From positions 10,849-74,848 of the forward strand of contig JAFGON010000040.1 of NCBI GenBank assembly GCA_016926475.1: 64,000 nt of DNA, in the 5' to 3' direction. The stretch is from a candidate division WOR-3 bacterium (GTDB lineage Bacteria > SDB-A). This document shows positions 5,249-20,040 of this stretch, in pieces (the stretch's first letter is position 1; every line of letters begins with the position of its first letter). A program made the translations under genes and the position numbers. The notes below the pieces were generated by a model. That model was not told where the DNA came from and searched no databases. It saw only the letters and a list, made by a program, of their open reading frames with translations.

Positions 5249-5279
5249 AAATTGCTGATTCAATAGAAGGTTGAAGACG

Positions 5280-6872
5280 ATGAAAAAAATAATTTTTCTG
5301 ATGGCTTTATCCGCCTCGCTGCAGGCGGAAACTATTAGGGTTGCGATCGCCGCGACTTCGGATCTTCAGAGCGTTTTGGTGCCGTACGAGTTGAAAATCG
5401 GAGACTCTGTTTTCACGGTCGGAGGATTCAGCAGGATATCTTCCTTTAAAAATAACCTCGAAAGCGATACTGCCCTCGACGGGGTCTTTCTCGTATCTTC
5501 GGGGGATGACTTCATCAACCCCATTTATTCGGTTTTTTCCGGGCAACCTGAAGTCAGAGGCATGAACTTAGCCCGTTATGACGTCTATTGTCCGGGAAAC
5601 CACGAATTCGACAACGGAACAAAGATGTTTTCAAACGCCATTTCAGAAGCCGAATTTGAAATAGTCTGTGCCAACATCACCTTTTCAGACAGCGCGCTAA
5701 ACGAAATTGTCAAAGACTATTCCACGTTTGAAATCGAGGGAGTGAAAATTGGATTTTTCGGTTTGATGACCCCGGATTTTTTTAAATTGACTAATCCCGG
5801 AGATTCACAGGTTTTCATGACCGAAGATATTTTTAAAGTCGCCGAGAGGGCGGTTGTCGAATTGGAATCTCTGGGATGCGGCGCGGTCATAGGTGTGACG
5901 CACACCGGTTTCAGGATTGACAGTTTGCTGGCTGAAAATGTCGAGGGCATCGACCTTATTATCGGAGGACACGACCACACCCAGTATTATGAGTACGTCA
6001 ACGGAGTCGCTCTCGTCCAGAACGGTGCTGGTTCGCAGACGATCGGAACCCTGTTTCTGACTTTCGAGGATGATTCTCTGAAGGTTATAGACTTTTGTTC
6101 GCGATACCTCGATTCGACAGTCGGTGAAGACGAGTTTGTCAGGGAAGAGATGGACGAATACTATGAAAAATACCAGGAAAGCCTTTCGGAGAAAATTGGC
6201 GTTTCTTTGACTTCTTTCGACACGAGAAAAGAAGTCGTGCGAGGAAAAGAGTCCAGTATCGGCGATCTGATATGCGACTCGTGGCTCTATTGGTTGGATG
6301 AAACCGATATCGCATTTATAAACGGCGGCTCTATAAGAGGAGACAGGGAGTTTCCGCCCGGAGACATAACCTACGGAACAATAGCTGAACTTCTGCCGTT
6401 CAGAAACGAAATAATTGAATTGAAAATGACTGGCAGCCAGATCAAGAGCGTTCTTGAGGTTTCAGCCTCGGGTCAGCTCGGGGCTCCCAACAACTGTCCG
6501 GATTCCATGAGAGCTTCATACGGAGGCTTTCTGCAGGTCGGTGGCATAAGATTTGTCATCGACACTTCCAAAGTTTCTTTCTGCGGCGTTTATTCGGGAA
6601 GAAACTTGATCGAAATCGTCGAACCCGGCGAGCGAATAAGCGAGGTGGAGGTTTTCGAAGACGGGAAATGGCTGGAACTCGAGTTGGACGGTCAATACAC
6701 CGTCATAGTCAGCGACTGGATAGCCGGGGGTGGAGACGGGCATTATGTTTTTTTGGACTCCTCGTTGGAGAGGGAATCGACTTCTATATACGCTCCTGAT
6801 CCGTTGTTGAACTTCATCCTGGAAAAAGGTGAAATCGAATTTTTTCCGGATGGAAGGATAAAAGTCAAGTAA
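5280..6872 (+). CDS. Secreted 5'-nucleotidase / UDP-sugar hydrolase-like metallophosphoesterase
   Basis: Signal peptide MKKIIFLMALSASLQA. Calcineurin-like motifs GNHEFD and GGHDHT, followed by a 5'-nucleotidase C-terminal-like domain. agaagg lies upstream of the ATG at 5280; the track's earlier start is a TTG. Confidence 0.8.
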   Translation: MKKIIFLMALSASLQAETIRVAIAATSDLQSVLVPYELKIGDSVFTVGGFSRISSFKNNLESDTALDGVFLVSSGDDFINPIYSVFSGQPEVRGMNLARYDVYCPGNHEFDNGTKMFSNAISEAEFEIVCANITFSDSALNEIVKDYSTFEIEGVKIGFFGLMTPDFFKLTNPGDSQVFMTEDIFKVAERAVVELESLGCGAVIGVTHTGFRIDSLLAENVEGIDLIIGGHDHTQYYEYVNGVALVQNGAGSQTIGTLFLTFEDDSLKVIDFCSRYLDSTVGEDEFVREEMDEYYEKYQESLSEKIGVSLTSFDTRKEVVRGKESSIGDLICDSWLYWLDETDIAFINGGSIRGDREFPPGDITYGTIAELLPFRNEIIELKMTGSQIKSVLEVSASGQLGAPNNCPDSMRASYGGFLQVGGIRFVIDTSKVSFCGVYSGRNLIEIVEPGERISEVEVFEDGKWLELELDGQYTVIVSDWIAGGGDGHYVFLDSSLERESTSIYAPDPLLNFILEKGEIEFFPDGRIKVK

Positions 6873-7558
6873 TGACGCATAAGGCTCTTGTCGTAGATTT
6901 AAGCTTTGATCAGGATTTTTACGATATGTTCAAAAAAGAACTCGAAGGTTTTGTGCAACCCGTATACGTCAACGGTTTTGAGATGAAATATCCTTCTTCA
7001 GATAAATTCTCGCTCATCGTCTTTTCCGGTTCCCAGCACTCTATCGAAAACGATTTCAAATGGCTCGATTACGCTATGGAATACTATCTTAAATGCTTTG
7101 AAAATTCCGTGCCGGTACTCGGTATCTGTTTCGGGCATCAACTCATCTCCAGAGCGCACGCCGGAAAAGACGCCGTAGGCAAGGTTAAAGTCCCTGAAAT
7201 GGGATTTGTTGAAATTTCACAATCCAGAGATTGCAAAGTGTTCGAAGGTCTTGAAAATCCTTTTAGAGCCATAGGAGCTCATTATGACGAGGTAAAAACT
7301 CTGCCAAAAGGGTTTAGGATTATAGCCGAAAACCAAAACTGTCATGTTCAGGCCATGATAAACGAGTCCAAATGTGTACTGGGACTTCAGTTTCACCCCG
7401 AGATTGACGGAAAGACAGCAAAAAAATTGTTCGAGAAAGAAGTTGATAAAATGAGAACTTACGGCGTCGATCTCAATAAAATAATCGCCGATACGCCTGA
7501 CGGCAGATTCGGAGCAGAAAGAATTTTCGAAAATTTCCTTCAATATTTTGTAATGTGA
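6872..7558 (+). CDS. Class I glutamine amidotransferase-like protein
   Basis: GICFGHQLI contains the Cys nucleophile in the G-x-C-x-G context; FHPE contains the His. TAATG overlap with the upstream gene. Confidence 0.65.
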   Translation: MTHKALVVDLSFDQDFYDMFKKELEGFVQPVYVNGFEMKYPSSDKFSLIVFSGSQHSIENDFKWLDYAMEYYLKCFENSVPVLGICFGHQLISRAHAGKDAVGKVKVPEMGFVEISQSRDCKVFEGLENPFRAIGAHYDEVKTLPKGFRIIAENQNCHVQAMINESKCVLGLQFHPEIDGKTAKKLFEKEVDKMRTYGVDLNKIIADTPDGRFGAERIFENFLQYFVM

Positions 7559-7566
7559 GGTCTATT

Positions 7567-8061
7567 ATGAAATCAATAGTGGTATTCTACTCGCTCGAAG
7601 GAAACACCGAATTCCTCGCGGCGGAAATAGCTAAAAAAACAGGTTCCGATATCCTGAGATTGATACAGAAAAGGGATTACAACCCCAGGGGAGCCCAGAA
7701 ATACATCCGGGGAGGGAAAGCTGTCATGATGAAGGAGAAGCCGGAGCTCGAACCTTATTCTTTTCGTCAGGAAGATTACGGTTTGTTGTTTTTGGGAACG
7801 CCGGTATGGGCGGGTTCTTTTGCTCCAGCTCTCAGAACATTTTTAAAACAAAACGTTTTCAACGATAAAATGTTCGCTCTTTTCTGCTGTCACGGCGGGG
7901 GAAAGAGAAAAGTTTTTGAAAACCTGGAGAAGATGCTCGAAGGCAACAAAGTTATCGGTAAAATTGATTTTTTGGAACCTTTGAAAAAAGACAGAGAATT
8001 ATCAATTCAAAAAGCTGTTGATTGGGCGCAAGAAATGTCCTTGAAAGCGGGTGGGAATTGA
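7567..8061 (+). CDS. Flavodoxin-like protein
   Basis: MKSIVVFYSLEGNTEFLAAEIAKKTG is a flavodoxin-type N-terminal FMN-binding loop (SxxGNT). The ATG at 7567 has gagg upstream; the track start is an upstream GTG. Confidence 0.55.
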   Translation: MKSIVVFYSLEGNTEFLAAEIAKKTGSDILRLIQKRDYNPRGAQKYIRGGKAVMMKEKPELEPYSFRQEDYGLLFLGTPVWAGSFAPALRTFLKQNVFNDKMFALFCCHGGGKRKVFENLEKMLEGNKVIGKIDFLEPLKKDRELSIQKAVDWAQEMSLKAGGN

Positions 8062-8063
8062 AA

Positions 8064-8978
8064 ATGTTTATTTTTCAAATTTTTGCCGTTTTGCCCATGG
8101 TTTTGTCAGGAGCCGATTTCTCCGGACGCTGGCAGACGACATACGGCGTCATGATCTTGGAACAGGAAGGGCAAAAGGTGACTGGCGGTTATTTCTTCAA
8201 CGGATACTGCCCCATAGAAGGAGAGGTGAATTCCTGGGGCAGGCTCGTTTTCAGGTACAACGAGCCGACAACATCCGGCGAAGGCTGGTTTGAGCTCTCT
8301 TCGGACGGGGATTCTTTTACCGGAAAGTGGAGAGAAGATGGAAAATCTCTTTGGTATGATTGGAATGGCTGCAGAAACGGGCTGTCTCTCGACACTTCGA
8401 AGATCTGGCTCGTAGTCCTCGAGGCTGAATGGCAGGAAACTCTCGACGAAAACGACTATTCTTTCGGCGAGATGCTCGAGGCTTTTTTCTCCCGCCTTCC
8501 AGACATCGAAGTCAGGCAGAGGTATGTCCACGATAAAGACGACCTGAGAAATTTCTGCGCTGAAACAGCTGGTCTTGACGGAAGAGTCTGCCTTTTGTTC
8601 GCGACGCATGGCGAGAAAGACGGCCTCGTCCTCAGGGATGGAATAGCGGGAGCGGAGGATATAGTGAGAGTTTTGGAACCTTGCGGCAATTTAGTTCTCG
8701 TCCATTTCAGCTCTTGCAACATAATGTCGGGTGAAGCGCCGGACAGAATAATAAATTCCCGTGACGACTGGCCCGAAGGTTTTGTCGTATCGGGCTACCT
8801 CAACCCAGTGGATTGGGCAGGCAGCGCCGTTTTCGAATTTTTCTACCTGAATTTGATTTTTGAGCAGGGCCTGACGCCGAGGGAAGCCGCAAAGACCGCC
8901 GAGTATCTCTTCAGATTTTCCGGTGAAGAAACCATAGACGGAATCGACGGACTGGGTTTTGAGTGGAAAGAGCCCTGA
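8064..8978 (+). CDS. Hypothetical secreted protein
   Basis: Starts MFIFQIFAVLPMVLSGA (signal-peptide-like). Contains LLFATHGEKDG ... LVLVHFSSCN, which is reminiscent of a clan-CD His-Gly/Cys dyad; this is a weak resemblance. Confidence 0.45.
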   Translation: MFIFQIFAVLPMVLSGADFSGRWQTTYGVMILEQEGQKVTGGYFFNGYCPIEGEVNSWGRLVFRYNEPTTSGEGWFELSSDGDSFTGKWREDGKSLWYDWNGCRNGLSLDTSKIWLVVLEAEWQETLDENDYSFGEMLEAFFSRLPDIEVRQRYVHDKDDLRNFCAETAGLDGRVCLLFATHGEKDGLVLRDGIAGAEDIVRVLEPCGNLVLVHFSSCNIMSGEAPDRIINSRDDWPEGFVVSGYLNPVDWAGSAVFEFFYLNLIFEQGLTPREAAKTAEYLFRFSGEETIDGIDGLGFEWKEP

Positions 8979-11900
8979 TGGGGCACAATATCAACCTGAA
9001 GATTTACGAAGCTTCCGCGGGTTCCGGAAAGACGACGAAATTAGCCTCTGAATACATCACGCAGTTGTTCAAATCATTCAAGCCTTTGTTCAGAGACAAC
9101 AGCCCTGATAAGACCTACACCGACAAAAACCTCGAAGAGTTCAGAAAAACCCTGAGTTCAATATTGGCGGTGACTTTCACGAATTTGGCTTCCGAGCAGA
9201 TGGGGGAGAGAATTCTCGACTATCTCTATAAATTCCGCGAAATTGAAAACTACAAAACCGATGTAGTAGAAAAGGTTTTTCGGGAAGTCTCGGATAAATC
9301 CGGGGTAAGACCTGAAGACATAAAAAAATGGTCCTCATTTTTTCTCGATTTCATAATTACCTGTTATTCGGATTTCAAAGCGACCACAATAGATTCTTTC
9401 TCCGCCACACTTGTTAAAGTCCTCTCGCCCGAGATAGATGGAATCACTCCAGATTTTAAAATCAGAGAGAGCTTTGGAGAAAACTTAAAAGAGTTGATTC
9501 GCCGTTTTCTTGAAGACAAAGTCCGGGAAGACTGGCCAGAAGTCGAATTATCCCTGATAAACCTTTCCGAGATAGAGAGCAAGAACAATTATAACTACGA
9601 CAATTTGCTGACGGATAAAATCTACCAAATATTTGAAAAATTCAAAGACTTAAAAAAAATTGATGTCACAGAGTTGAACAAAGATTTGGATATGTTTTCA
9701 GAAGAAATCCAGAAAACTTCAGAACCACTTTTTGGATTCATTGAAAAGAACTCTGGCGGAATTAATAAGAAAAAAATCAGCGAAAATATTCTTGAAAAAT
9801 TGGGAGAACTCGGAAAAGCTAAAAAAAGAGAATTAAAATCAAAAGTACCTTTTTTTGCAGAAAAGACCATTTGCCGTGACAATTCACAGGATTTATTAAA
9901 CACCGGTTATAAAAATTTAGACTCTGAGTTTGAAGAATATTTAAAAGCTTTCAGATTTGCGGTTGGAAAGTTCGTCTTCTGCTTAAACAAACTCAAAATA
10001 GCCCATTTTGCCAATTTAACTGTAGAGTTTTCGGAGGTTTTTGACAGCAGAAAAAAAGACGTTGTGTATCTCTATGAAATATCGAATATTTTAAAAGAGA
10101 AACTGAACGTCGAATCGATGCCGTATTTATACTTAAAACTTTCCGAAAAATATTTGCGCTTTCTCATCGACGAATTTCAGGACACGAGTTCAAGACAACT
10201 GGATGTTCTCGTTCCCATAGCTTCAAACGCTATTCTATCCGAGAAGGACCAGAGCTCACTTTTCATAGTCGGAGACCAGAAGCAGGCCATATATTTCTGG
10301 CGCGGCGTCCAAATGGGGATGATGGACGAAGACAAAATTGTAAACGATTTTGAGCTAAAAGACGCCTTGGGCAAAAACAGGGGAAGTATAAAGAACAGCC
10401 TCGAATGCAATTTCCGCAGCGATAGAACGCTGGTCGAATTTTTCAACGATTTTTGGAAAAAGGAAAACATGGAAGGTTTGGACTCATACGCTTTGGAAAA
10501 AACTTTCGAAAAAAGCTTTGCGGATGTCAATCAAAAACCCGCGCGTCGAGACATGGTAAGCGGGTATGTAGAGATAAAAAAAATTGACGCACCAGACAAG
10601 GAGACGATATTCGAGGAAATTTTTATGACGGTGGAAAAGATAAAGGCGAAAGGATGGCGAGACGGAGACATAGCGATTCTTTTGAGAAACAAGAGCTATA
10701 TAAAGGATTTGTTTGATTTTTTGACGAAAAAAGGGCTTGAATGCATAACAGACGAATCAACGTATCTTTTGAGTTCACCTCTCGTGGCGGAGATTATTTC
10801 CTTTATGAAATTTTTGGATTTTCCGCCGGACGACCTCAGTTTTATTGAATTTGCCCGTAGCAACCTGCTGAAAAAAGCCGCTGAATCTGTGAACCTTGAT
10901 TACAAATATGAAGATTCCGTATATTTTAAAGCCGAGGGAAGTTTCTACACGATTTTCAGGGAGAAATATTTCCAGGTCTGGAAAATATTCGTCGAGCCCT
11001 TTTTCAATTCTGTGGGGTTCATGACAGCCTATGACGTTTATGAAGACATCATCTATAAGTTCAAGGTAGAGGAAAACTTTCCCGGAAGCTCTTTTTTTAC
11101 AATTAAATTGGGGGAGATCCTACACGACCTTGAAGTGTCAAACAAAACTTCGATATCTTCTTTTTTGTCTTTTATCTATGAAAACGGAGATAGCGAAGCC
11201 GACTTTAAAATCGACATTCCGAAAGATGAGGACAAAATTAAAATATCGACTATACACAGTTCCAAAGGGCTGGAATTCGAAAATGTAATTCTGGATGTCT
11301 CTGAAAAGCTGGTCAAAAGATTTGATGCAATCTACTCAACTGGAGGGCATCTTATTAAAATTCCCAAGGAAGAAGCCAAAGTAGATGTTTGTATGTTCAA
11401 AACTTACATTGAAGAGACTCGAAAAGGCAATACAGGCGAATTGAATTTGCTGTATGTGGCTATGACGAGAGCCAAACACGGATTGTTCATGATCGGCGAT
11501 AAAACAACAAAAAATGCCGAAAAAAAAATACCCGGAAAATTGATGAAATTTCAAGATATTGTATTTGCTAACAGATCAATCAAATTCGAAAATGACGTCT
11601 ACTCATCCGGAGAGATGAGCTTCAAAATTGAAAAGGATGAGAACAAAGAAAGCGTGGAGCTGACAAACGTGCCAAAGAGAAAAAGTGTAAACGAAATCAA
11701 GGACGCCTACCTTGTCTATGAATCAGGCAAAGCTAAGAGCGCCAGCCAGAAAAGAGGAGATGCTATCCACAACGCGCTTTCTCTTCTGGGGGTGTACAAA
11801 GATAAAAACGATTTTAAAAACGCCCTTTCGGAGGCTCTCGATTTGAATCTCCTGTCTGAAGAGGAGAGAAGACTCTTAGAAGATTTTTTTCTCGAAGAGA

Positions 11901-12172
11901 GTGTTGTAAAGTATTACGTCGGAGATTTTCCGGCTTTGAACGAAGCAGAATTCATTTCGGGTAGCGGCGATATAATGAGGCCCGACAGGATAGCCAAGAT
12001 GAGGGATTGTGTTTGGATAATAGACTACAAGACGGGAAAAGAGTACGAGTCAGAACACAGAAAACAGCTTGAGAAATACCGCGAAAACCTGAAAAAAGTT
12101 TACGCCGGATTAGAAATCAAGGCATGCCTTTTATACCTCGATAAAAAAGAAATGGTCTATGTCGAAAGTTGA
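8978..12172 (+). CDS. addA: AddA-like ATP-dependent helicase/nuclease (UvrD-type helicase with C-terminal RecB-family PD-(D/E)xK nuclease)
   Basis: Walker A KIYEASAGSGKTT, characteristic of AddA/UvrD. The C-terminal WIIDYKTGK is the RecB-type nuclease motif. The ATG overlaps the upstream stop (TGATG). Confidence 0.8.
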   Translation: MGHNINLKIYEASAGSGKTTKLASEYITQLFKSFKPLFRDNSPDKTYTDKNLEEFRKTLSSILAVTFTNLASEQMGERILDYLYKFREIENYKTDVVEKVFREVSDKSGVRPEDIKKWSSFFLDFIITCYSDFKATTIDSFSATLVKVLSPEIDGITPDFKIRESFGENLKELIRRFLEDKVREDWPEVELSLINLSEIESKNNYNYDNLLTDKIYQIFEKFKDLKKIDVTELNKDLDMFSEEIQKTSEPLFGFIEKNSGGINKKKISENILEKLGELGKAKKRELKSKVPFFAEKTICRDNSQDLLNTGYKNLDSEFEEYLKAFRFAVGKFVFCLNKLKIAHFANLTVEFSEVFDSRKKDVVYLYEISNILKEKLNVESMPYLYLKLSEKYLRFLIDEFQDTSSRQLDVLVPIASNAILSEKDQSSLFIVGDQKQAIYFWRGVQMGMMDEDKIVNDFELKDALGKNRGSIKNSLECNFRSDRTLVEFFNDFWKKENMEGLDSYALEKTFEKSFADVNQKPARRDMVSGYVEIKKIDAPDKETIFEEIFMTVEKIKAKGWRDGDIAILLRNKSYIKDLFDFLTKKGLECITDESTYLLSSPLVAEIISFMKFLDFPPDDLSFIEFARSNLLKKAAESVNLDYKYEDSVYFKAEGSFYTIFREKYFQVWKIFVEPFFNSVGFMTAYDVYEDIIYKFKVEENFPGSSFFTIKLGEILHDLEVSNKTSISSFLSFIYENGDSEADFKIDIPKDEDKIKISTIHSSKGLEFENVILDVSEKLVKRFDAIYSTGGHLIKIPKEEAKVDVCMFKTYIEETRKGNTGELNLLYVAMTRAKHGLFMIGDKTTKNAEKKIPGKLMKFQDIVFANRSIKFENDVYSSGEMSFKIEKDENKESVELTNVPKRKSVNEIKDAYLVYESGKAKSASQKRGDAIHNALSLLGVYKDKNDFKNALSEALDLNLLSEEERRLLEDFFLEESVVKYYVGDFPALNEAEFISGSGDIMRPDRIAKMRDCVWIIDYKTGKEYESEHRKQLEKYRENLKKVYAGLEIKACLLYLDKKEMVYVES

Positions 12173-15038
12173 AATTATCGATTTCGGAAAGAGTTTAATC
12201 GATCGAACGGCGGAAATCGCAATCGAAAACGATTTAAAAAATATTTTCATTTTGTATCCGTCAAAGAGGTTTGAAGTCTTTCTAAAAGAAGAGTTCAAAA
12301 AAAGGTTGAAAACCGTCCGTTTTCTGCCGAGGATGGACACGATAGACGAATTTGTGATGAGGCTCTACCAAATGAACCAGCCGGGCTTCAAAATCGCCTC
12401 TGAAATCGAAACTTCTTTTGTGCTATGGAAAACGCTCAAAGAAATTTCGCCGGATGGAATGTATTTGGGGAAAAAAGAGATTTCGAATTTCGTATCCTTT
12501 TATCCATGGGCTTTGAAACTGAAAAAATCTGTCGAGCAGATCCTCGTGGAGTCGGAAAATTTACCTGATCAAAACGCCGTCTATGAAAAATTCGTAGAGA
12601 TGGGCGAATATTTCAGGGAATACAGGGATTTTATAGCGAATTTGCCCCTTGTTGTAAACGCTTACGTCCAAGCGCACAACGAAATGAAGCTGTTCACGAG
12701 GGGTGTAGCTTACAGGGGTTTAACCGGAGAGAAGTGTCTTGATGTCTTGAAAGCTTGGGATTTGAAAAGTTTCGTGTTTTCAGGCTTCAACGCCTTGAAT
12801 TTCGCTGAAAAACTCCTTGTAGAAAACATTTTAAAAAATTTTGAGAATTCGATTTTTCTCGTCAGATATCAAAAACCGGATAAAACCGAGTCCCTATCTC
12901 CCTTCAGGACAATTTCCGAGACAGTCCGGAGTTTGAAGGGGGGGTTTAGAGCCGATGTCGGAAAGTCAGAGGTTTTCAGATATTCTGACATAGTGGATAA
13001 AACCGAGGTCTATTCTTCTTCTAACGTGGAGCACGAGATGATTCTCATGCATGACGTCCTTTTGGATTATCTCCAGACTAACAAGAGTTCACGTAGGATA
13101 GGCGTTTTGCTTCCGGAACCTTCTTCTCTTATACCTTTTGTCGAAAACGTATTGACCCGCGTCGACCCTGAAAACGCGGACATGAAATTCAACATAACAC
13201 TCGATTATCCTTTCCAGAGGACTCCGCTATTCCAGCTCCTGGACTCAATTCTTTTAATATCACAAAGTGTCGAAAATGGATTTATACCGACATCTTTATA
13301 CCTCGAGATGATAAGGCATCCTTATATAAAATTAGCCCAAAAATCAGAAAACACTGATTCTCAAAGGATACAGATACACAGGTTTGAGAGCCATGTGATA
13401 GACCTGAACGTCCTGGAACTCGAGCTTGGAGAAGACGGTGATTTTTTGAACATTAAAAATTTCAGCCAGAACTACGAGTATCTCAGGGGCATAAACCGCA
13501 GGTTTCTTCCGGGAAAAAACGAGAGTGTTTCCGATCTTTGCAGGCGTTTGTTGGATTGCCTACTCTTCATAAACCAGAGCCGCAATTCATACCTGTTCTT
13601 CAGAGATTTTTTGAATTCAGCCCAAATAATTCTCGACGAGGTCTTGGAATTCATTGAAAAACAACCCGATTTAGCGCATTTCAAAGATCCGCATAAAAAC
13701 GCCGATTTCATTAGATATCAGCTCTTGAACATACCCGTTCAATTCACAGGCACTCCGCTTGAGGGCATCCAGGTAATGGGGGCTCTGGAGTTCAGGAACC
13801 TCGATTTCGACGCCGTCTTTATTGCTGACTGCGTCGAAGGAATCATGCCTGACTCTTCGAAATACGACCCGGTACTACCCGGAGATATCAAAGAGATTTT
13901 CAAGCTTAGGTCGTATGGTGAATGGGAGAGCATATACGCTTCGAATTTGTTTTCAATTCTGCTTTCCAGTAAAACGGTGAAAATTTTTTACCCTGAGAAA
14001 ATGAGGGAGCAGAGAACAAAAAGGAGCAGGTTTATAGAGAAAATTTGTTTCAGCGACAAAAGGAGAGCGAAGCCAATCGTGAAAAAGATGAACTTTTCGA
14101 TATCGAAAACCGAAAAGATTCTTGAGGTCGAAAAGACAAAAGAAATCAAAGAAAAAATACTCCAAAGAGGGTTTTCTCCAAGCGCGTTTGAAGACTATAT
14201 ATCCTGCCCGATAAAATTTTATTTCAAGAGAATCCTGAATCTTGAAGAGAGGCAGACGCTGGAAGAAGAACCCGACGCCGCTGGAATAGGGACGATTGTC
14301 CACGAATCCTTAAGGGAATTCTACCAAGAAAGAAAAAACGTCAAAACACCGGAAGACATAACCGAGATACTGAAAAAAAACTTTATGGAACAAAACATTG
14401 AAGTTGAAAGCGGGTTGGGAAAAATAAAATTCTGGGGAGTTGATAGAAACCTGAAAAAATTTTTAAGCTGGGACATGGAGAATCAGAACAGAGAAGAAAT
14501 TGAAATTTTACAACTTGAAAAAGAGATAAAAGCGGATTTTGAATTTGAAGAGCAGACGGTTTCATTCAAGGGAAAAGTCGACCGAGTTGAAAAGGTAAAA
14601 GACGAATTGTTTATCTGCGACTACAAGACGAAAGAGAAAATTGTAAAATTGTTCCTCAAAAATTATTTGGAATTTGATGTCCCCCGACTAAAAGAGATCA
14701 CAGACCCTTGTCAATACAGAAAACATTTCAGAAATTTGTCCAATATGTGTAAATGTCATCAGGTAATGATTTATATCGAGATGTGGTCAAAGAATGAAAG
14801 TGAGCAAAAGGGAGAGCTAAACGGCAAATACTATTTTCTGAAAGAAAAAGACAAGGATGTCCAGAAAATTGTCTTGGAGAAAAGTAAAATTGAGTATCGT
14901 GAAAAATATTTGGAGATATTCAAAAGCTTCATGGATGATTTGCTTTTTGGCGACAAGTTTATAACGGTTCCCCATAAAGATGTTTGCATGTATTGCCCGT
15001 TTGAAAATCTCTGTCAAGTCGAAATAAGTCAAAATTAG
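12159..15038 (+). CDS. addB: AddB-like helicase-nuclease subunit (RecB-family nuclease with C-terminal Cys cluster)
   Basis: Overlaps addA by 14 nt. FICDYKTKEK nuclease motif near the C-terminus. Cys residues (CQYRK..., CMYCPFENLC) are consistent with the AddB Fe-S staple. It is large and follows addA directly. Confidence 0.6.
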   Translation: MSKVEIIDFGKSLIDRTAEIAIENDLKNIFILYPSKRFEVFLKEEFKKRLKTVRFLPRMDTIDEFVMRLYQMNQPGFKIASEIETSFVLWKTLKEISPDGMYLGKKEISNFVSFYPWALKLKKSVEQILVESENLPDQNAVYEKFVEMGEYFREYRDFIANLPLVVNAYVQAHNEMKLFTRGVAYRGLTGEKCLDVLKAWDLKSFVFSGFNALNFAEKLLVENILKNFENSIFLVRYQKPDKTESLSPFRTISETVRSLKGGFRADVGKSEVFRYSDIVDKTEVYSSSNVEHEMILMHDVLLDYLQTNKSSRRIGVLLPEPSSLIPFVENVLTRVDPENADMKFNITLDYPFQRTPLFQLLDSILLISQSVENGFIPTSLYLEMIRHPYIKLAQKSENTDSQRIQIHRFESHVIDLNVLELELGEDGDFLNIKNFSQNYEYLRGINRRFLPGKNESVSDLCRRLLDCLLFINQSRNSYLFFRDFLNSAQIILDEVLEFIEKQPDLAHFKDPHKNADFIRYQLLNIPVQFTGTPLEGIQVMGALEFRNLDFDAVFIADCVEGIMPDSSKYDPVLPGDIKEIFKLRSYGEWESIYASNLFSILLSSKTVKIFYPEKMREQRTKRSRFIEKICFSDKRRAKPIVKKMNFSISKTEKILEVEKTKEIKEKILQRGFSPSAFEDYISCPIKFYFKRILNLEERQTLEEEPDAAGIGTIVHESLREFYQERKNVKTPEDITEILKKNFMEQNIEVESGLGKIKFWGVDRNLKKFLSWDMENQNREEIEILQLEKEIKADFEFEEQTVSFKGKVDRVEKVKDELFICDYKTKEKIVKLFLKNYLEFDVPRLKEITDPCQYRKHFRNLSNMCKCHQVMIYIEMWSKNESEQKGELNGKYYFLKEKDKDVQKIVLEKSKIEYREKYLEIFKSFMDDLLFGDKFITVPHKDVCMYCPFENLCQVEISQN

Positions 15039-15074
15039 GTTTAAAAAAACAACCACAACTTGTAAAATGCTAAA

Positions 15075-16487
15075 ATGTCTTCAGAATATTACGTTTCCAA
15101 TAAGTCTATTTCGGTCAGGCTTTTAGGCGAAAGCGACGCCCAGCTTTTTCAGCCTGACACAGGCTCTAAAATATATCTCAATCAGACCGGGCTTTTCATT
15201 TGGAAGTTACTCGACGGCGGTAATTCAAGGGTTGAAATTGTCAACGCTGTTCAGAATGAATTTGACGCTCCCGACAGCAAGGAACTCGACTCCGATATAG
15301 GGCAATTTCTGAGCGGTCTCGAAGAAAAGGGGTATGCCCATTCACGGAATTTTCTTAGAAGAGAACCCAGAAGCACCTATTTCATTCATGAAAATGAAGC
15401 GCCCAGGTCAATTGACATATCTGTTACGAAAAATTGCAACCTGAACTGCAAGTATTGTTTTTATCGCGAAGAGATGAAAAATAGGGAAGACCTGCCCCTT
15501 TCGGAATGGGAGAAGTTTTTGGAGGAGCTTAAAAGCCTTGCGGTCGAAGAAGTCGTGCTGAGTGGTGGAGAGGTTTTTTGCAGAAAAGATCTCTGGGATT
15601 TCATCGATTTGATCGTGGAAAGCAACCTCAGGTATTCGTTTCTTTCAAACGGAACGTTGTTCGACGATTCTGTTCTCAGCGAGCTCGAGAAGGATGGGCG
15701 TAAAAAGAGGCTATCGAGCATACAAATCTCAATAGACGGTTCAAAGGCGGAAGTTCACGATATGTCGAGAGGGAAAGGAAGTTTTGAAAAGGCTGTAAGG
15801 GGTCTGAAAAACGCCATGGGTGCCGGATTAAACGTCACGGTGAGGTTGACGGTAAACAGACACAACCTCGGCGACCTCGAAGAAGCCGCGAAATTCCTGC
15901 TGGTCGATATCGGACTTCCATCTTTCAGCACCAACGACGCGATTCCTCTCGGGGCGGCGTGCTGGAACAAAGACACGATAACACTCGATCCTTTAATGCA
16001 GTTTGAGGCGATGAAAACCCTCGGAAAACTTCAAAAACAATATGACAACAGAATCACGGCGATGGCAGGGCCTTTGGCGAAATGGCATCTTTACCGAAAG
16101 ATGGAGAGGATGAAAAGGCAAGGCGAAAAACCAGAGCCCTGGATGGGATATTTGACGGGATGCGGATGTCCTTTCAGCAAATTGGCAGTTCACCACGACG
16201 GTGTATTTATTCCATGCAATATGCTCTCGAAAATTGAACTTGGCCAGATGAACAAAGATTCTCTGAAAGATGTTTGGATCAACAGCCCTATTTTGAAGAG
16301 GATGAGGGAGAGGCGAAGAGTGCCTATGAAAGAAGTCCCGGGCTGTGAAAACTGCGAGTACAATTTGTATTGCAACGGCAGCTGTCCAGCTTTGGCCGGA
16401 GTGACTGCTGAAAATTTTATCCTTCCAAACCTCTTCGACTGTTACAAGAAATTCAAAGAAGATACAGGCCGGAATCTTGACGAATAA
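15075..16487 (+). CDS. Radical SAM/SPASM peptide maturase with N-terminal PqqD-like RiPP recognition element
   Basis: The N-terminal ~90 aa (KIYLNQTGLFIWKLLDGGNSRVEIVNAVQNEFD...FLSGLEEKGY) match the PqqD/RRE fold signature. CNLNCKYCF is the CxxxCxxC radical-SAM cluster. The C-terminus has a Cys-rich SPASM-type region (GCGCPFSK...IPCNML...CENCEYNLYCNGSCPA). Confidence 0.85.
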   Translation: MSSEYYVSNKSISVRLLGESDAQLFQPDTGSKIYLNQTGLFIWKLLDGGNSRVEIVNAVQNEFDAPDSKELDSDIGQFLSGLEEKGYAHSRNFLRREPRSTYFIHENEAPRSIDISVTKNCNLNCKYCFYREEMKNREDLPLSEWEKFLEELKSLAVEEVVLSGGEVFCRKDLWDFIDLIVESNLRYSFLSNGTLFDDSVLSELEKDGRKKRLSSIQISIDGSKAEVHDMSRGKGSFEKAVRGLKNAMGAGLNVTVRLTVNRHNLGDLEEAAKFLLVDIGLPSFSTNDAIPLGAACWNKDTITLDPLMQFEAMKTLGKLQKQYDNRITAMAGPLAKWHLYRKMERMKRQGEKPEPWMGYLTGCGCPFSKLAVHHDGVFIPCNMLSKIELGQMNKDSLKDVWINSPILKRMRERRRVPMKEVPGCENCEYNLYCNGSCPALAGVTAENFILPNLFDCYKKFKEDTGRNLDE

Positions 16488-17535
16488 GTTTTACCCTCTT
16501 AAAACGATCTACATGTATCTGATGGGCAGCTGCAACCTAAAATGCAGACATTGCTGGATTGACCCGGATTTTGTGGATGTCCCGCAGAAATACTTGACTT
16601 GGACTGAAATTAAGAGGATCTACCAGGAAGCAAAAATAATAGGCCTGTCTTCAGTTAAATTGACCGGGGGGGAACCTTTCCTTCATCCTGAAATTCTCCA
16701 GATAATAACTGGAATAAAAGAACTCGGACTTGGTTTGACCATAGAGACAAACGGTACTTTGTTGGATGATGAGAGAGTGCATGCGCTGAAAAAACACGCG
16801 AATTTCGTCGCCATTTCCATAGACGGCGCTGAACCCAACAGTCATGAAGACCTTAGGGGTGTCGAAGGCTCTTTTGACGCAGTCTTAAAAGGCGCGGGAC
16901 TGCTAAAAAAAGAAGGCTTGGGGTTTCAAGTCATATTTTCTCTCTACAGGAAAAATCTCCGGGATCTTTTTTTGATGCCCAGCTTTGTCGAAGGAATAGG
17001 AGGCGCAAGCCTCAAGGTAAATCCGATCAACGTCGTAGCGAGATCTGAAAAAATGGAAAGAGACGGAGAACTGTTTTCTGTAGAAGAAATTTTAGAAATA
17101 AAAAATGATTTTGACCGTATATCAAAAAAATCAAAACTGACGATAACATTCGATGTGCCTGCCGCTTTTCATAGTCTTGAGCACATTTCGAAACAGGGAT
17201 TTGGAACGTGCGGAATCCTGACTATTTTGGGGATACTCAGCGACGGAACGGCGAGTATCTGCGGCATAGGATCGGTTAAAAAAGAACTCGATTTCGGAAA
17301 TTGCCTCGACCGAGGAATTGAGAATATATGGCGTGAAAATGACACTCTGAATATGCTCAGAGAGAATATACCTCATAACCTGCAGGGTGTATGCATGAGG
17401 TGTGTCCACAAGCATTACTGCCTGGGCAAGTGCGTAGCGGAAACATACGCCAGAACGGGCAGTTTTTTGTCAGGTTATTATTTCTGCCAGATAGCTCAGG
17501 AAAAAGGACTTTTCCCCCCTACGCGACTTTTATGA
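16477..17535 (+). CDS. Second radical SAM/SPASM-domain protein (no RRE)
   Basis: GSCNLKCRHCWI is a CxxxCxxC motif. GGEPFLHPE is a glycine-rich SAM motif. C-terminal Cys clusters (GTCGIL...ICGIG, CMRCVHKHYCLGKCVA). Overlaps the upstream gene by 11 nt and the downstream gene by ATGA. Confidence 0.8.
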   Translation: MTNKFYPLKTIYMYLMGSCNLKCRHCWIDPDFVDVPQKYLTWTEIKRIYQEAKIIGLSSVKLTGGEPFLHPEILQIITGIKELGLGLTIETNGTLLDDERVHALKKHANFVAISIDGAEPNSHEDLRGVEGSFDAVLKGAGLLKKEGLGFQVIFSLYRKNLRDLFLMPSFVEGIGGASLKVNPINVVARSEKMERDGELFSVEEILEIKNDFDRISKKSKLTITFDVPAAFHSLEHISKQGFGTCGILTILGILSDGTASICGIGSVKKELDFGNCLDRGIENIWRENDTLNMLRENIPHNLQGVCMRCVHKHYCLGKCVAETYARTGSFLSGYYFCQIAQEKGLFPPTRLL

Positions 17536-18404
17536 AAGACAAGCCATCATCGGATATAGCGGTTTTTGTGCTATCGGGAGAAAGTATGAAACCGCTTATG
17601 AAGACCGGCGATGTTTTCATGGCTTCAAAAGTTTTTCCGGAGAAATTGAAATACGGCGACATAGTCGTCTTTGAAAAAAATGGAAAACTCGTATCTCACT
17701 CAATCATCAAAGTGAAAAGAGAAGGAACGGATATCAAAGTCTTGACAAAGGGTTTGAACAGAAACGAGGACGACGGATGGACAGATGGGGATGTTTTGAA
17801 ATTCGAAGTCGAAGCCCTGAAAAAGGGGAAACATTTTTTGGGTTTAAACCGGACAAAAAAGACATTTTATTGTGCGTTGGCGCCGTTGAGGAAAAAAATC
17901 CGCAACTGTCTTTTTGAGTTTTCTGTTAAAATTTCGCCACTGTTTCGATTTATGATGAAAAAAGGGCTGATAAAGGTAAAAAAAATTATGTCTCAAGACG
18001 AAGAATTAGTGGTATTATGGGACAGAAGTGTTTTGAAAAGAAGGGGCGATAATAGAGAAATACACCCCTTTTTTAGAAAAGGCGCGGTGAAAGAAGAGGA
18101 TTTAATGGAGTCTGCAGAAAAACAAGGCAAGACAGGTAACGTTTATATGAACCCTGATCTGGTTTTCAGAATTGAGGGAGACGAGGGTCTTGTATATAAT
18201 GTGAAAACAGGTGATTTTAGAATAATAAACGAGACGGGTTGCGCGATTTTAAAACTCGCCAACGGAAACTTCGACAAGAAAGGAATAATAGACCTTATAC
18301 TTGAAGAATACGAATCAAAGGACCAAGAAGAGATGATGGTAAAAGAGGTGGGTGAATTTATTGACGATTTATCAAAACGAGATATAATAAGATTGATTGA
18401 TTGA
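17532..18404 (+). CDS. Soluble SipW/S26-like (clan SF) serine peptidase fused to a C-terminal PqqD-like RRE domain
   Basis: SGESMKPLMKTGDVF is SPase box B with a Ser nucleophile. YGDIVVF, VSHSIIKV and TKGLNRNEDDG parallel the SipW-type HRV/TKGDNN boxes. There is no N-terminal TM anchor. The C-terminal LVYNVKTGDFRIINETGCAILKLANGNFDKKGIIDLILEEYE is PqqD-like. Confidence 0.65.
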   Translation: MKDKPSSDIAVFVLSGESMKPLMKTGDVFMASKVFPEKLKYGDIVVFEKNGKLVSHSIIKVKREGTDIKVLTKGLNRNEDDGWTDGDVLKFEVEALKKGKHFLGLNRTKKTFYCALAPLRKKIRNCLFEFSVKISPLFRFMMKKGLIKVKKIMSQDEELVVLWDRSVLKRRGDNREIHPFFRKGAVKEEDLMESAEKQGKTGNVYMNPDLVFRIEGDEGLVYNVKTGDFRIINETGCAILKLANGNFDKKGIIDLILEEYESKDQEEMMVKEVGEFIDDLSKRDIIRLID

Positions 18405-18423: not shown

Positions 18424-18720
18424 ATGAAAAAGAAATACATAAAACCTTCTATTTTAGATTTTAAACCAAGGGTTGCCCAGGGAAATCTTTTTTCGGGAAC
18501 CAACACCAGCAGCCCGGAAGGCGGCTGTACAGCTGGTTCAGCGGCTGATTATTGCAATTATGGACAAATGGCGACCGGTTTTTCTGATTGCGCCAACGGT
18601 TCTGGCGCTATGGACTGCACGCAGGGCGCTTTGGCGAGTGGAAATCTATGCGCCACGGGCACGAACGCGACAGGAGGCGGAGGAGGATTTTGCGCTTCAG
18701 GGTCAAGCCCTCTCGCTTGA
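18424..18720 (+). CDS. Putative RiPP precursor peptide A1 (Cys-rich, Gly/Ser/Ala/Thr-rich core)
   Basis: 98 aa. Strong RBS (tggggg). Leader MKKKYIKPSILDF..LFS..SPEG, then a core with 7 Cys at ~9-13-residue spacing and GGGGGF. It is paralogous to 19750..20040. Confidence 0.6.
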   Translation: MKKKYIKPSILDFKPRVAQGNLFSGTNTSSPEGGCTAGSAADYCNYGQMATGFSDCANGSGAMDCTQGALASGNLCATGTNATGGGGGFCASGSSPLA

Positions 18721-18746
18721 TGTGAAGGTTTAAAAAAGCTAATTGC

Positions 18747-19559
18747 TTGAATGAATTAAAGATCAAAATAGGTTCCATATCTCTGAAATTACGGTCAAAA
18801 GAGCGTATCGGCTTTTTTTCTGATTTGTTTGAATACTTTAAGACAAAAGATGAATGTCTATATGACACTGAGATCGTTTTTTGGGATTGTGAAGACATCC
18901 TCGACTGCATAAAGAAGAAAATTTTTTGGGTGAAAGACAACATAAAATCCGCCAGAAATACTATTCACATGATTTCTTCTTTCGGATTTAAGACAATTGT
19001 TGACGAAGACCAGGGCAAGATATTTATTTTTTCCCCCCAGGAATACAAAGCCAAGGCTTTGAGGGTTTCTGTGGGCTTTTTTTGCTGGAAAATGTTTCCC
19101 AAAGACAAATATCTTTTTTTTCATGCCGCGTCCTGTAAGTTCTCAGAAAACAGCTATCTCTTTCCGGCGAACAGCGGCAAAGGCAAGACCACTTTGAGTG
19201 AAAACGCAATAAAATGCGGCGAGGTATTCAACGACGAGTTTTCTCTCGTCGAGATTACCACAGACGGATATGTTCTTCATGGCACACCTTTCGGGCAGGT
19301 GACGAGCGGACCGATTTTGGGTCAACTAAAAAAAATATTCTTTCTCGAAAAAAGCGAAAAAAACGACTTCAAGAGGATTACGCCCGTCGAATCAATGAAA
19401 ATTGCTTGGGAGGACAACCTATACAGAACAGGGATAACCAATTCCGAAGAGAGAAAATTGGTGTTCAACGAAATTTTGGATATTTTCGAAAATATTCCAT
19501 GTTTTGAGATGAATGTGAGAAAAGATTTCAACGATTTTAAACTACTCGAGAATTTATAG
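18747..19559 (+). CDS. HPr kinase C-terminal-domain-like P-loop protein (putative precursor-peptide Ser kinase)
   Basis: FFHAASCKF...ANSGKGKTTLSEN is a P-loop G-x-S-G-x-GK-T/S as in HprK/lasso-peptide kinases. It is ~270 aa and sits between the two precursor genes. Confidence 0.55.
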   Translation: MNELKIKIGSISLKLRSKERIGFFSDLFEYFKTKDECLYDTEIVFWDCEDILDCIKKKIFWVKDNIKSARNTIHMISSFGFKTIVDEDQGKIFIFSPQEYKAKALRVSVGFFCWKMFPKDKYLFFHAASCKFSENSYLFPANSGKGKTTLSENAIKCGEVFNDEFSLVEITTDGYVLHGTPFGQVTSGPILGQLKKIFFLEKSEKNDFKRITPVESMKIAWEDNLYRTGITNSEERKLVFNEILDIFENIPCFEMNVRKDFNDFKLLENL

Positions 19560-19749
19560 ATCCCTTTTCTAAATAAAATGTTAAAATGACAGAAAACATT
19601 GGAATATAGAGCTGTTTTGGTATTTTTGAATCTTTTCTAAAACTCCGATTTTATAAATAGATAATTAGAGATATTTGCAGTGAATTGTTAATAAAAATAT
19701 TACTTGTTAATTTCCAAAAAAATCAATAAAATGTCAAAAAGGCTGTTTT

Positions 19750-20040
19750 ATGGGGAAAAAGAAGTATATTAAACCTCAAATAAGGTGTTTTGAAGCAATC
19801 ACGGCATATTCACAGCTTTTTTCGAATGAATCACCTGAAGGGGTTTGCACCATAGGCACCGTTGCAAACGCCTGTCAGGAAGGGGGAAGTGCGTCCGGAG
19901 GTCCAGGACAGTGCCTTTCCGGCTCGACTGCCAATTTTGACTGCCTCACTGGGAGTTATGCGCAGGGTTCGGTATGCTCCAACGGAGACCACGCGGCAAA
20001 TCAAGGCGGACAATGTAAAGTGGGTATGAGTCCAAAATAA
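19750..20040 (+). CDS. Putative RiPP precursor peptide A2 (paralogue of A1)
   Basis: 96 aa. Leader MGKKKYIKPQI..F....QLFSNESPEG. The core has 7 Cys, 6 of them alignable to A1, and a C-terminal GMSPK. Confidence 0.6.
   Translation: MGKKKYIKPQIRCFEAITAYSQLFSNESPEGVCTIGTVANACQEGGSASGGPGQCLSGSTANFDCLTGSYAQGSVCSNGDHAANQGGQCKVGMSPK

Follow-up and report, generated by a model that had tools for sequence, protein, structure and literature searches.

The stretch of DNA considered here (the window) comprises 64,000 nucleotides of contig JAFGON010000040.1, from the metagenome-assembled genome (MAG) of a candidate division WOR-3 bacterium. It carries two short genes, here called A1 and A2, which encode peptides of just under 100 amino acids (aa) with regularly spaced cysteines. 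They lie on either side of a gene for an HprK-related P-loop protein, downstream of genes for two radical S-adenosylmethionine (rSAM) enzymes and for a peptidase-like fusion protein. A1 and A2 are very probably paralogous precursors of peptides that are made on the ribosome and modified after translation (RiPPs), belonging to a divergent cassette of the SynChlorMet (SCM) type; a mechanism by which they may be matured is proposed below. The genes and features are the following (RRE, RiPP recognition element):

15075-16487, + strand: ScmE-like maturase, 470 aa, a radical SAM/SPASM enzyme with a PqqD/RRE domain fused to its N-terminus
16477-17535, + strand: ScmF-like second radical SAM/SPASM enzyme, 352 aa, its gene overlapping the ScmE-like gene by 11 nt
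17532-18404, + strand: peptidase-PqqD fusion, a Sec11/SipW-type signal-peptidase-like domain followed by a C-terminal PqqD domain
18361-18388, + strand: promoter-like sequence TTGACG-16-TATAAT, 36 nt ahead of the first codon of A1
18424-18720, + strand: candidate precursor peptide A1, 98 aa, leader KKKYIKPSI (residues 2-10) and six C-x-x-G-x-x-[A/P] repeats
18747-19559, + strand: ScmC-like HprK-related P-loop protein, 270 aa, a putative kinase
19750-20040, + strand: candidate precursor A2, 96 aa, with KKKYIKPQI (residues 3-11) in its leader and six core Cys in C-x-x-G repeats

Both peptides are annotated as 'hypothetical protein' in the WOR-3 MAG (A1, MBN1150375.1, JXA84_04025; A2, MBN1150377.1, JXA84_04035). 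An earlier note, made from the letters of the window, had described two paralogous small open reading frames (ORFs) with a shared leader and six aligned Cys, and the coordinates, translations and motifs that we obtained agree with this description. The two peptides are 44% identical over 97 columns (BLASTP with composition adjustment, E=7e-18). In the MAFFT alignment their six core Cys, which in A1 occupy positions 35, 44, 56, 65, 76 and 90, fall in the same columns, a seventh Cys lying in the leader of A2 (residue 13). Common to both are also the blocks KKKYIKPxI..F, LFS and SPEG and a C-terminal SP dipeptide, A1 ending in -SPLA and A2 in -SPK. When the window is translated in all six frames, the motif KKKYIKPxI occurs just twice, in A1 and A2; three or more CxxG motifs are likewise confined to these two among the 1169 stop-to-stop segments with a length of 30 aa or more. 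The A1 core was also shuffled 100,000 times with its composition preserved, and its six CxxGxx[A/P] motifs were never attained. Hydrophobic residues (ILVFMW) make up 12-14% of the cores and G, S, T, A and N together 54-68%; no signal peptide was found in the sequence of either peptide. The idea of a secreted Cys-rich protein was rejected, given the missing signal peptide and the conserved maturase context.

Orthologues of both A1 and A2 are found in syntenic loci of related WOR-3 genomes (L004 and L024/L025). Between L004 and L024, the ratio of nonsynonymous to synonymous substitution rates (dN/dS) is 0.10 for A1 and 0.25 for A2, in line with the adjacent enzymes and the neighbouring DUF402 gene (0.09-0.23), and thus the two reading frames are under purifying selection. 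In addition, Cys, Gly and Ala columns are kept across 11 diverse peptide sequences. A1 and A2 are real, selected, paralogous genes. The pattern of a conserved leader and a diverged core, which had been put forward as typical of RiPP precursors, holds between the two paralogues, but not between orthologues, each orthologous core being well conserved (93% identity for that of A1 between L004 and L024).

The promoter-like site upstream of A1 lies within the 3' end of the peptidase-PqqD gene. It agrees with the consensus at 11 of 12 positions and is the best such site between 14900 and 20500, the match being to a sigma-70-like consensus, in a phylum whose promoters are uncharacterised. It suggests that the precursor may be transcribed separately, and at a higher level, from the rest of the cassette. 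A G-rich stretch, GGGGG, upstream of A1 is a possible ribosome-binding site, and A2 is preceded by an AT-rich spacer of 190 bp (27% GC). RNA folds downstream of A1 and A2 gave no convincing terminator.

A word-indexed protein search with A1 retrieved A1 alone, and one with the ScmC-like protein retrieved three proteins. Scanning genome contigs with the ScmE-like protein brought up nothing but distant rSAM genes of Firmicutes (22-32% identity), which were of no use here. A hidden Markov model (HMM) profile built from A1 and A2 was then run exhaustively against 1.84 billion representative proteins, and gave 10 matches at E<=1e-3. Two of these are A1 itself and an unrelated 891-aa repeat protein (P0011); the other eight are small peptides that have a (K)K-x-Y-x-x-P leader, a core of CxxG repeats rich in Cys and Gly, or both, among them P0012, a 63-aa core-only sequence. 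A metagenome scan for KKKYIKPxI yielded ten further loci. The full cassette is present in L004 and L024. In L006 a peptidase-PqqD fusion lies upstream of the peptide (P0007) as it does in the window, and is followed, after the peptide, by ScmC; on the contig of P0009 the peptide is followed by ScmC, and in L014 the order is peptide (147-545), PqqD, then an ScmE-like rSAM enzyme (46% identity). The longest peptides are found in L007, which encodes one of 377 aa (4618-5751, 31 Cys and 30 CxxG) and one of 214 aa (8001-8645, 16 repeats), flanked by two ScmC paralogues (5766-6671, + strand, and 6902-7879, - strand). L008 encodes four tandem peptides of 66-81 aa (1714-1914, 2721-2966, 3118-3327 and 4191-4418) with KKKYIKP-type leaders and 4 to 7 Cys. 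An anaerobic-digester subfamily (L009-L017; for example L014:147-545 and L016:404-808 and 1474-1878) has peptides of about 133 aa with 9-10 Cys and the sequence 'MKKKYIKPxIIDLSIEGMTGFGYGVLS...GNSNVGGFS'; its genes are usually preceded by a conserved ORF of 120-166 aa that contains a hydrophobic stretch and ends in ...YYGRVLCGCPGTSSGKK.

The family was also approached from the side of the enzymes. ScmE-like proteins number 1267 at E<=1e-30, many of them named ScmE by their source. All four intact ScmE-anchored cassettes examined (L019, L020, L022/L023 and L026) encode a peptide of 88-93 aa whose leader has the form K-K-x-x-Y-x-[KP]-P and whose 6-7 Cys include 4-6 in CxxG repeats. The gene order is ScmE, ScmD, ScmF, ScmC, peptide in the first three, and in L026 the peptide gene lies between those of ScmD and ScmF. 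In three of the four, the peptide had not been called by the source annotation (L019:10778-11101, L020:10965-11243, L026:5838-6119), and the exact sequences of these uncalled peptides are absent from a collection of 15 billion proteins. L021 has an orphan ScmE and no such peptide. In L018, a WOR-3 genome, the same addB/DUF402 site (7001-9021) retains an intact ScmE-like gene and a 147-aa ScmF stump, and neither the peptides nor the peptidase-PqqD or ScmC genes were found there; L018 shows a decayed cassette and hence that the system is dispensable.

Several ScmE-anchored loci contain additional genes. A nucleotidyltransferase of the NTP_transf_5 family (PF14907) lies upstream in three (L019:5839-6996, L020:3694-4893, L026:1592-2521), and an ABC (ATP-binding cassette) exporter lies near the cassette in L019 (12361-14187), L020 (12622-14457) and L022 (4818-6632); no gene of either kind was found near the window cassette. 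The pairing of a kinase with a nucleotidyltransferase recalls the lasso peptide psm cluster (PsmK/PsmN). L019 also has an UpxY/NusG-like antiterminator, which the window cassette does not have. In L022, a second and different RiPP-like cluster is found beside the SCM cassette (11845-15440, - strand); besides rSAM genes it has those of a methyltransferase, of two PqqD proteins of small size and, at 14796-14984, of a peptide of 62 aa, MKKKIWSTPMLT...CGACQSRGGGGS.

Thus, homologous small ORFs, on whose existence the call of the earlier note depended, do lie beside rSAM/SPASM, PqqD and ScmC genes elsewhere (L004, L024, L006, L014, L019, L020, L022 and L026). The peptides are found repeatedly beside homologues of ScmC, PqqD or rSAM enzymes, across unrelated lineages and with differing gene orders. 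A short gene adjoining RRE-bearing maturases, in a co-location conserved across lineages, is what is generally looked for in a RiPP precursor, and together with the family and the dN/dS values this supports the proposal that A1 and A2 are leader-plus-core precursors of an rSAM pathway.

Comparison of the family members defines both parts of the peptide. Y-x-x-P was found within the first 20 residues in 24 of 24 leaders, extended to Y-x-x-P-x-[I/V] in the WOR-3, digester and related groups. YxxPxL is the lasso leader motif bound by PqqD-type B1 proteins, and the ScmD-type PqqD domains also match lasso PqqD models. The core consists of 4 to 31 tandem modules of the form C-x-x-G-x-x-[A/P]-x(2-6). 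Counted over 23 members with 184 core Cys, Gly stands three positions after the Cys 95% of the time, its background frequency being 19%; position +6 is Ala in 51% and Pro in 20% (71% together), and position +5 is Ser in 29%. The spacing between successive Cys is mostly 9-13 residues, with a mode of 10-11, and this Cys pattern is conserved family-wide. About 11-13 residues past the leader motif, A-x-[AGST] with a Gln or Asn after it occurs in many members, which gives as candidate cleavage sites VAQG|N in A1, TAYS|Q in A2, AAYA|Q in P0010 and SAYA|Q in P0008. A-x-[AGST]|Q/N fits the -3/-1 rule of signal peptidases, and we put it forward as the putative cleavage site.

The genes of the window cassette overlap or abut (by the 11-nt overlap of the first two genes and by an ATGA overlap), which suggests a single operon, and they are flanked by housekeeping genes, an addB-like nuclease gene on one side and DUF402 and endonuclease V (nfi) genes on the other. 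The ScmE-like protein, with the Pfam domains PqqD, Radical_SAM, Fer4_12 and SPASM, scores 376.4 bits against TIGR04250 (ScmE, cut-off 400) and is about 50% identical to many proteins that their sources name ScmE. The ScmF-like protein (Radical_SAM and SPASM in Pfam) scores 324.8 bits against TIGR04251 (ScmF, cut-off 400). For the two rSAM proteins ScmE and ScmF are the top matches by a wide margin, the next family reaching 138 bits at most. The fusion protein matches the signal peptidase model TIGR02228 (sigpep_I_arch) at 58.1 bits, above its cut-off of 51.85, as well as Peptidase_S24 (E=7.8e-5) and PqqD (PF05402, E=4.2e-7), and its PqqD domain scores 13.8 bits against TIGR04248 (ScmD, cut-off 100). 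It is probably a leader peptidase fused to an RRE. Its maximal ORF would begin at 17391 and overlap ScmF by 145 nt, but the start was put at the ATG at 17532, which overlaps the ScmF stop as ATGA, because the orthologues in L004 and L024 begin at the equivalent Met.

Pfam family PF27840 (ScmC) is precomputed on P0002, a protein identical to the ScmC-like protein of the window, which also matches HprK_rel_A (E=1.3e-4) and TIGR04249 (ScmC; E=2.3e-3, 17.3 bits, cut-off 125). The catalytic core of HprK/P is marked by a His, a P-loop of the form G-x-S-G-x-G-K-[ST] and acidic residues. In an alignment of 10 ScmC homologues the only invariant residues are H126, S143, G146, K147 and D163, through which the signature (His, P-loop and downstream acidic pair) is present in ScmC, and a relative, the ScmC of L022, gives E=5e-6 against TIGR00679, the model of HPr(Ser) kinase. 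A distant member of the ScmC family, P0004 (L005:1146-1949), is found amid YcaO, nitroreductase and QueC-like genes, which hints that ScmC-type proteins may also accompany non-rSAM (YcaO/azoline-type) RiPP pathways.

Judged from these matches, the cassette is a divergent SCM cassette in which every component falls below the NCBIfam equivalog cut-offs, an assignment that the earlier note had not made; nor had it recognised that a precursor model, ScmA, already exists for such cassettes. Like SCM, the cassette of the window combines two PqqE-like rSAM/SPASM enzymes and a PqqD-type chaperone domain with a P-loop protein of the ScmC family and with small peptides of the YxxP-CxxG type. It differs in that PqqD, a free protein (ScmD) in SCM, is fused to a signal-peptidase-like domain, in having two precursors of about 97 aa where the ScmA model has 49 positions, and in its scores relative to the cut-offs (376/400, 325/400, 17/125 and 14/100). 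The precursor model, TIGR04252 ('SynChlorMet cassette protein ScmA', SCM_precur_ScmA), is an HMM with a cut-off of 35 bits. One relative, P0008, forms a weak bridge between A1 and A2 and this model: it matches the A1+A2 profile at E=3.4e-6 in the search of 1.84 billion proteins, and its match to TIGR04252 (17.4 bits, E=0.0038) covers the model from end to end, starting at the YEPP leader of P0008 and taking in three CxxG repeats. In architecture, A1 and A2 are of one kind with ScmA, of which they are probably distant homologues.

Several results weigh against these assignments. A1, A2 and nine of their relatives have no match to TIGR04252 even at E<=10, so that A1 and A2 do not reach the 35 bits that define ScmA (the L020 peptide scores 9.7 bits), and no NCBIfam or Pfam model matches A1 or A2. 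An hhalign comparison of the WOR-3 peptides with the ScmE-anchored peptides aligns 11 leader columns only (P=9e-4, probability 23%), and therefore the homology of the cores is carried by motif, position and the weak bridge provided by P0008. The first core Cys is missing from the L004 orthologue of A2 (PEGMRMVG) and is thus dispensable there, so that the six conserved Cys described in the earlier note are aligned between A1 and A2, and follow a family-wide pattern, without being kept in every orthologue. No rSAM gene was found in the 10-kb contig of L007, nor any maturase or rSAM gene in the 5.3-kb contig of L008. A search of the Protein Data Bank with a sequence profile of the 10 ScmC homologues returned mostly generic P-loop matches, HprK (1ko7) appearing at E=0.0067, and we infer the kinase activity of ScmC from the P-loop/His/Asp signature only. 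Finally, outside SCM the best matches of the two rSAM enzymes are WgkB (a peptide maturase), heme/NirJ enzymes, MftC and PqqE, all far below their cut-offs, and these are not thioether synthases; no characterised thioether synthase is matched above its cut-off.

A search of the library at hand found no paper on the SynChlorMet/SCM system, on ScmC-F, on TIGR04248-04251 or on PF27840, and none that combines HPr kinase, radical SAM and SPASM; two surveys of rSAM RiPPs make no mention of SCM. The kind of system is already known from database curation, as the SCM cassette with a Cys-containing precursor modelled as ScmA. New here are a divergent branch in WOR-3, which has two long precursors and in which the peptidase is fused to an RRE, the explicit grammar of the core repeat, the wide range of repeat numbers and the frequent non-annotation of the precursor.

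The following mechanism is proposed. The PqqD/RRE domains, one on the ScmE-like enzyme and one on the peptidase, would bind the YxxP leader, as they do in lasso B1 proteins, and the two rSAM/SPASM enzymes would then modify every repeat iteratively. The product would most likely be a thioether between each Cys sulfur and a nearby carbon, Gly(+3) being the prime acceptor candidate. A Cys-to-Gly(+3) link is the most economical model because Cys and Gly(+3) are the sole near-invariant core residues, and small Cys-to-Gly(+3) thioether rings are our best guess. Such rings would be unnested sactionines of four residues, in which the sulfur of Cys is bonded to Gly(+3) at its Calpha. A link of this geometry (i, i+3), an S-Calpha bond between Cys31 and Gly34, exists in streptosactin (PMC8172795). 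The second rSAM enzyme may act on the Ala or Pro at +6 or elsewhere, or install a different link.

The Ser/His peptidase, tethered by its RRE, would remove the leader, possibly at A-x-[AGST]|Q/N near residue 20. RRE-targeted removal of a leader by a Sec11/SipW-type signal peptidase is not known from other RiPP classes. With ATP, ScmC would phosphorylate the peptide or activate it in some other way; phosphorylation would have its analogue in PadeK and PsmK, HprK-family kinases that phosphorylate lasso-peptide precursors (PMC6993621). The suggestion of the earlier note that the C-terminal SP is the target of this putative kinase is weak, because SP also resembles the repeat consensus (Ser at +5, Pro at +6) and is not conserved throughout the family, being present in the WOR-3 orthologues, in P0007 and in L020 but absent from L019, L022, L026 and the digester subfamily. 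The most complete version of the scheme, with one ring per repeat (a 'beads-on-a-string', type-II sactipeptide of 4-31 rings) together with the actions of a second rSAM enzyme, a kinase and an RRE-fused, cytoplasmic signal-peptidase-like processing enzyme, is a tentative proposal, unlikely to hold as a whole.

Other RiPP classes share parts of this system. Streptosactin (GggA/GggB) resembles it in having an rSAM/SPASM maturase, Cys donors and a Cys-x-x-Gly link that matches the C-x-x-G unit. However, it has two rings, whereas the peptides here have 6-31 repeats in a much longer Gly/Ser-rich core and are accompanied by two rSAM enzymes, and the ScmE- and ScmF-like enzymes show no significant similarity to sactisynthase models at their cut-offs. 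Against the models of sacti- and ranthipeptide synthases, the ScmE-like protein scores 94 bits for StsB (cut-off 625) and 75 for PapB (cut-off 340), and the ScmF-like protein 62 for AlbA (cut-off 850).

Ranthipeptide and SCIFF systems (PapA-PapB, CteA-CteB) have Cys-rich precursors with regular Cys spacing and rSAM/SPASM enzymes with an N-terminal RRE. The regular spacing of Cys is a point of likeness, and PapB is among the weak matches, but ranthipeptides follow a C-x3-D repeat or the SCIFF pattern, whereas A1 and A2 follow C-x-x-G-x-x-A/P and are twice as long. Membership of SCIFF (six Cys in 45 residues) was rejected: there is no HMM match, the peptides have about 97 aa and their Cys extend over about 60 residues. 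The earlier note had judged the Cys array closer to ranthipeptide/SCIFF substrates than to sactipeptides; if anything, the conserved Gly(+3) would favour small rings of the sactionine type.

The likeness to lasso machinery lies in the leader, Y-I-K-P-x-I in A1 and A2 fitting YxxPxL, in the ScmD-type domains, which match lasso PqqD models, and in ScmC, which has the HprK P-loop, His and acidic signature of PadeK and PsmK. Lasso systems, however, have an asparagine-synthetase-like C cyclase and a B2 protease, neither of which is in the window cassette, and their kinases act on a C-terminal Ser, which A1 and A2, with their -SPLA and -SPK ends, do not have.

The alternative that survives best accepts A1 and A2 as RiPP precursors and supposes a modification other than a thioether: C-C or C-O crosslinks, epimerisation, conversion of Cys to another group (formylglycine, for example), or Cys left free for metal, Fe-S clusters or disulfides. 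It is possible, if rather unlikely. The best matches among characterised families are WgkB, AhbD/NirJ, MftC and PqqE, with StsB, AlbA and PapB lower; an anaerobic sulfatase maturase (anSME) model is among the rSAM matches, and a pair of rSAM enzymes that differ from each other implies two chemistries or more. These alternative families are, however, also below their own cut-offs, and the anSME motif, C/S-x-P/A-x-R, is absent from the sequences of the peptides. By far the best conserved positions of the core are those of Cys and Gly(+3), as expected if Cys serves as the reactive donor of each repeat.

A second alternative concerns what the product does. It could be an intracellular, cofactor-like or redox peptide, comparable to pyrroloquinoline quinone (PQQ) or mycofactocin, instead of a secreted bioactive peptide. 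No transporter, exporter or immunity gene was found in the window cassette, and in the absence of an exporter from the cassette the WOR-3 product may act inside the cell. The cassette occupies the same site, between the addB-like gene and DUF402/nfi, in at least three WOR-3 genomes that have diverged to saturated dS, which implies long vertical retention, and MftC and PqqE are among the rSAM matches. On the other hand, an ABC exporter adjoins the cassette in L019, L020 and L022, the repeat number (4-31) and the diverging paralogous cores are unlike cofactor precursors, and the loss of the peptides and ScmC from L018 shows that the system can be dispensed with. We regard a cofactor-like product as doubtful.

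It is very improbable that the two genes encode ordinary small proteins rich in Cys and Gly, metallothionein-like or structural, which happen to lie beside rSAM genes and are not substrates. This would suit the L007 and L008 peptides, which have no rSAM gene in the available contig. It fits poorly with the recurrent co-location with ScmC, PqqD or rSAM genes in unrelated lineages and different gene orders, and with the Y-x-x-P leader that all members retain, a type of leader that PqqD-type RREs bind. A1 and A2 have no signal peptide; moreover, NCBIfam curators model a peptide of the same architecture as the SCM precursor (TIGR04252). Lastly, chance, untranslated open frames in a locally GC-rich stretch are hardly credible: the A1 and A2 regions have about 50% GC, richer than their flanks, and do contain overlapping ORFs in alternative frames, but the dN/dS values, the Cys/Gly/Ala columns conserved in 11 sequences, the BLASTP similarity between the two peptides and the GGGGG upstream of A1 all speak against it.

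The reading of A1 and A2 as precursors of a divergent SCM-type cassette bears on a system that is widespread in anaerobes, whose substrate this locus and its relatives define more sharply, as a YxxP leader followed by C-x-x-G-x-x-[A/P] repeats. The precursors reach far past what the narrow NCBIfam models cover, with lengths of up to 377 aa and as many as 31 repeats, and are often missed by gene callers. The WOR-3 variant adds to the system a predicted leader protease, a signal-peptidase-like enzyme fused to an RRE. An orphan, widespread rSAM RiPP system is thereby made experimentally tractable, and the rules for RiPP genome mining in an uncultured phylum would be improved.

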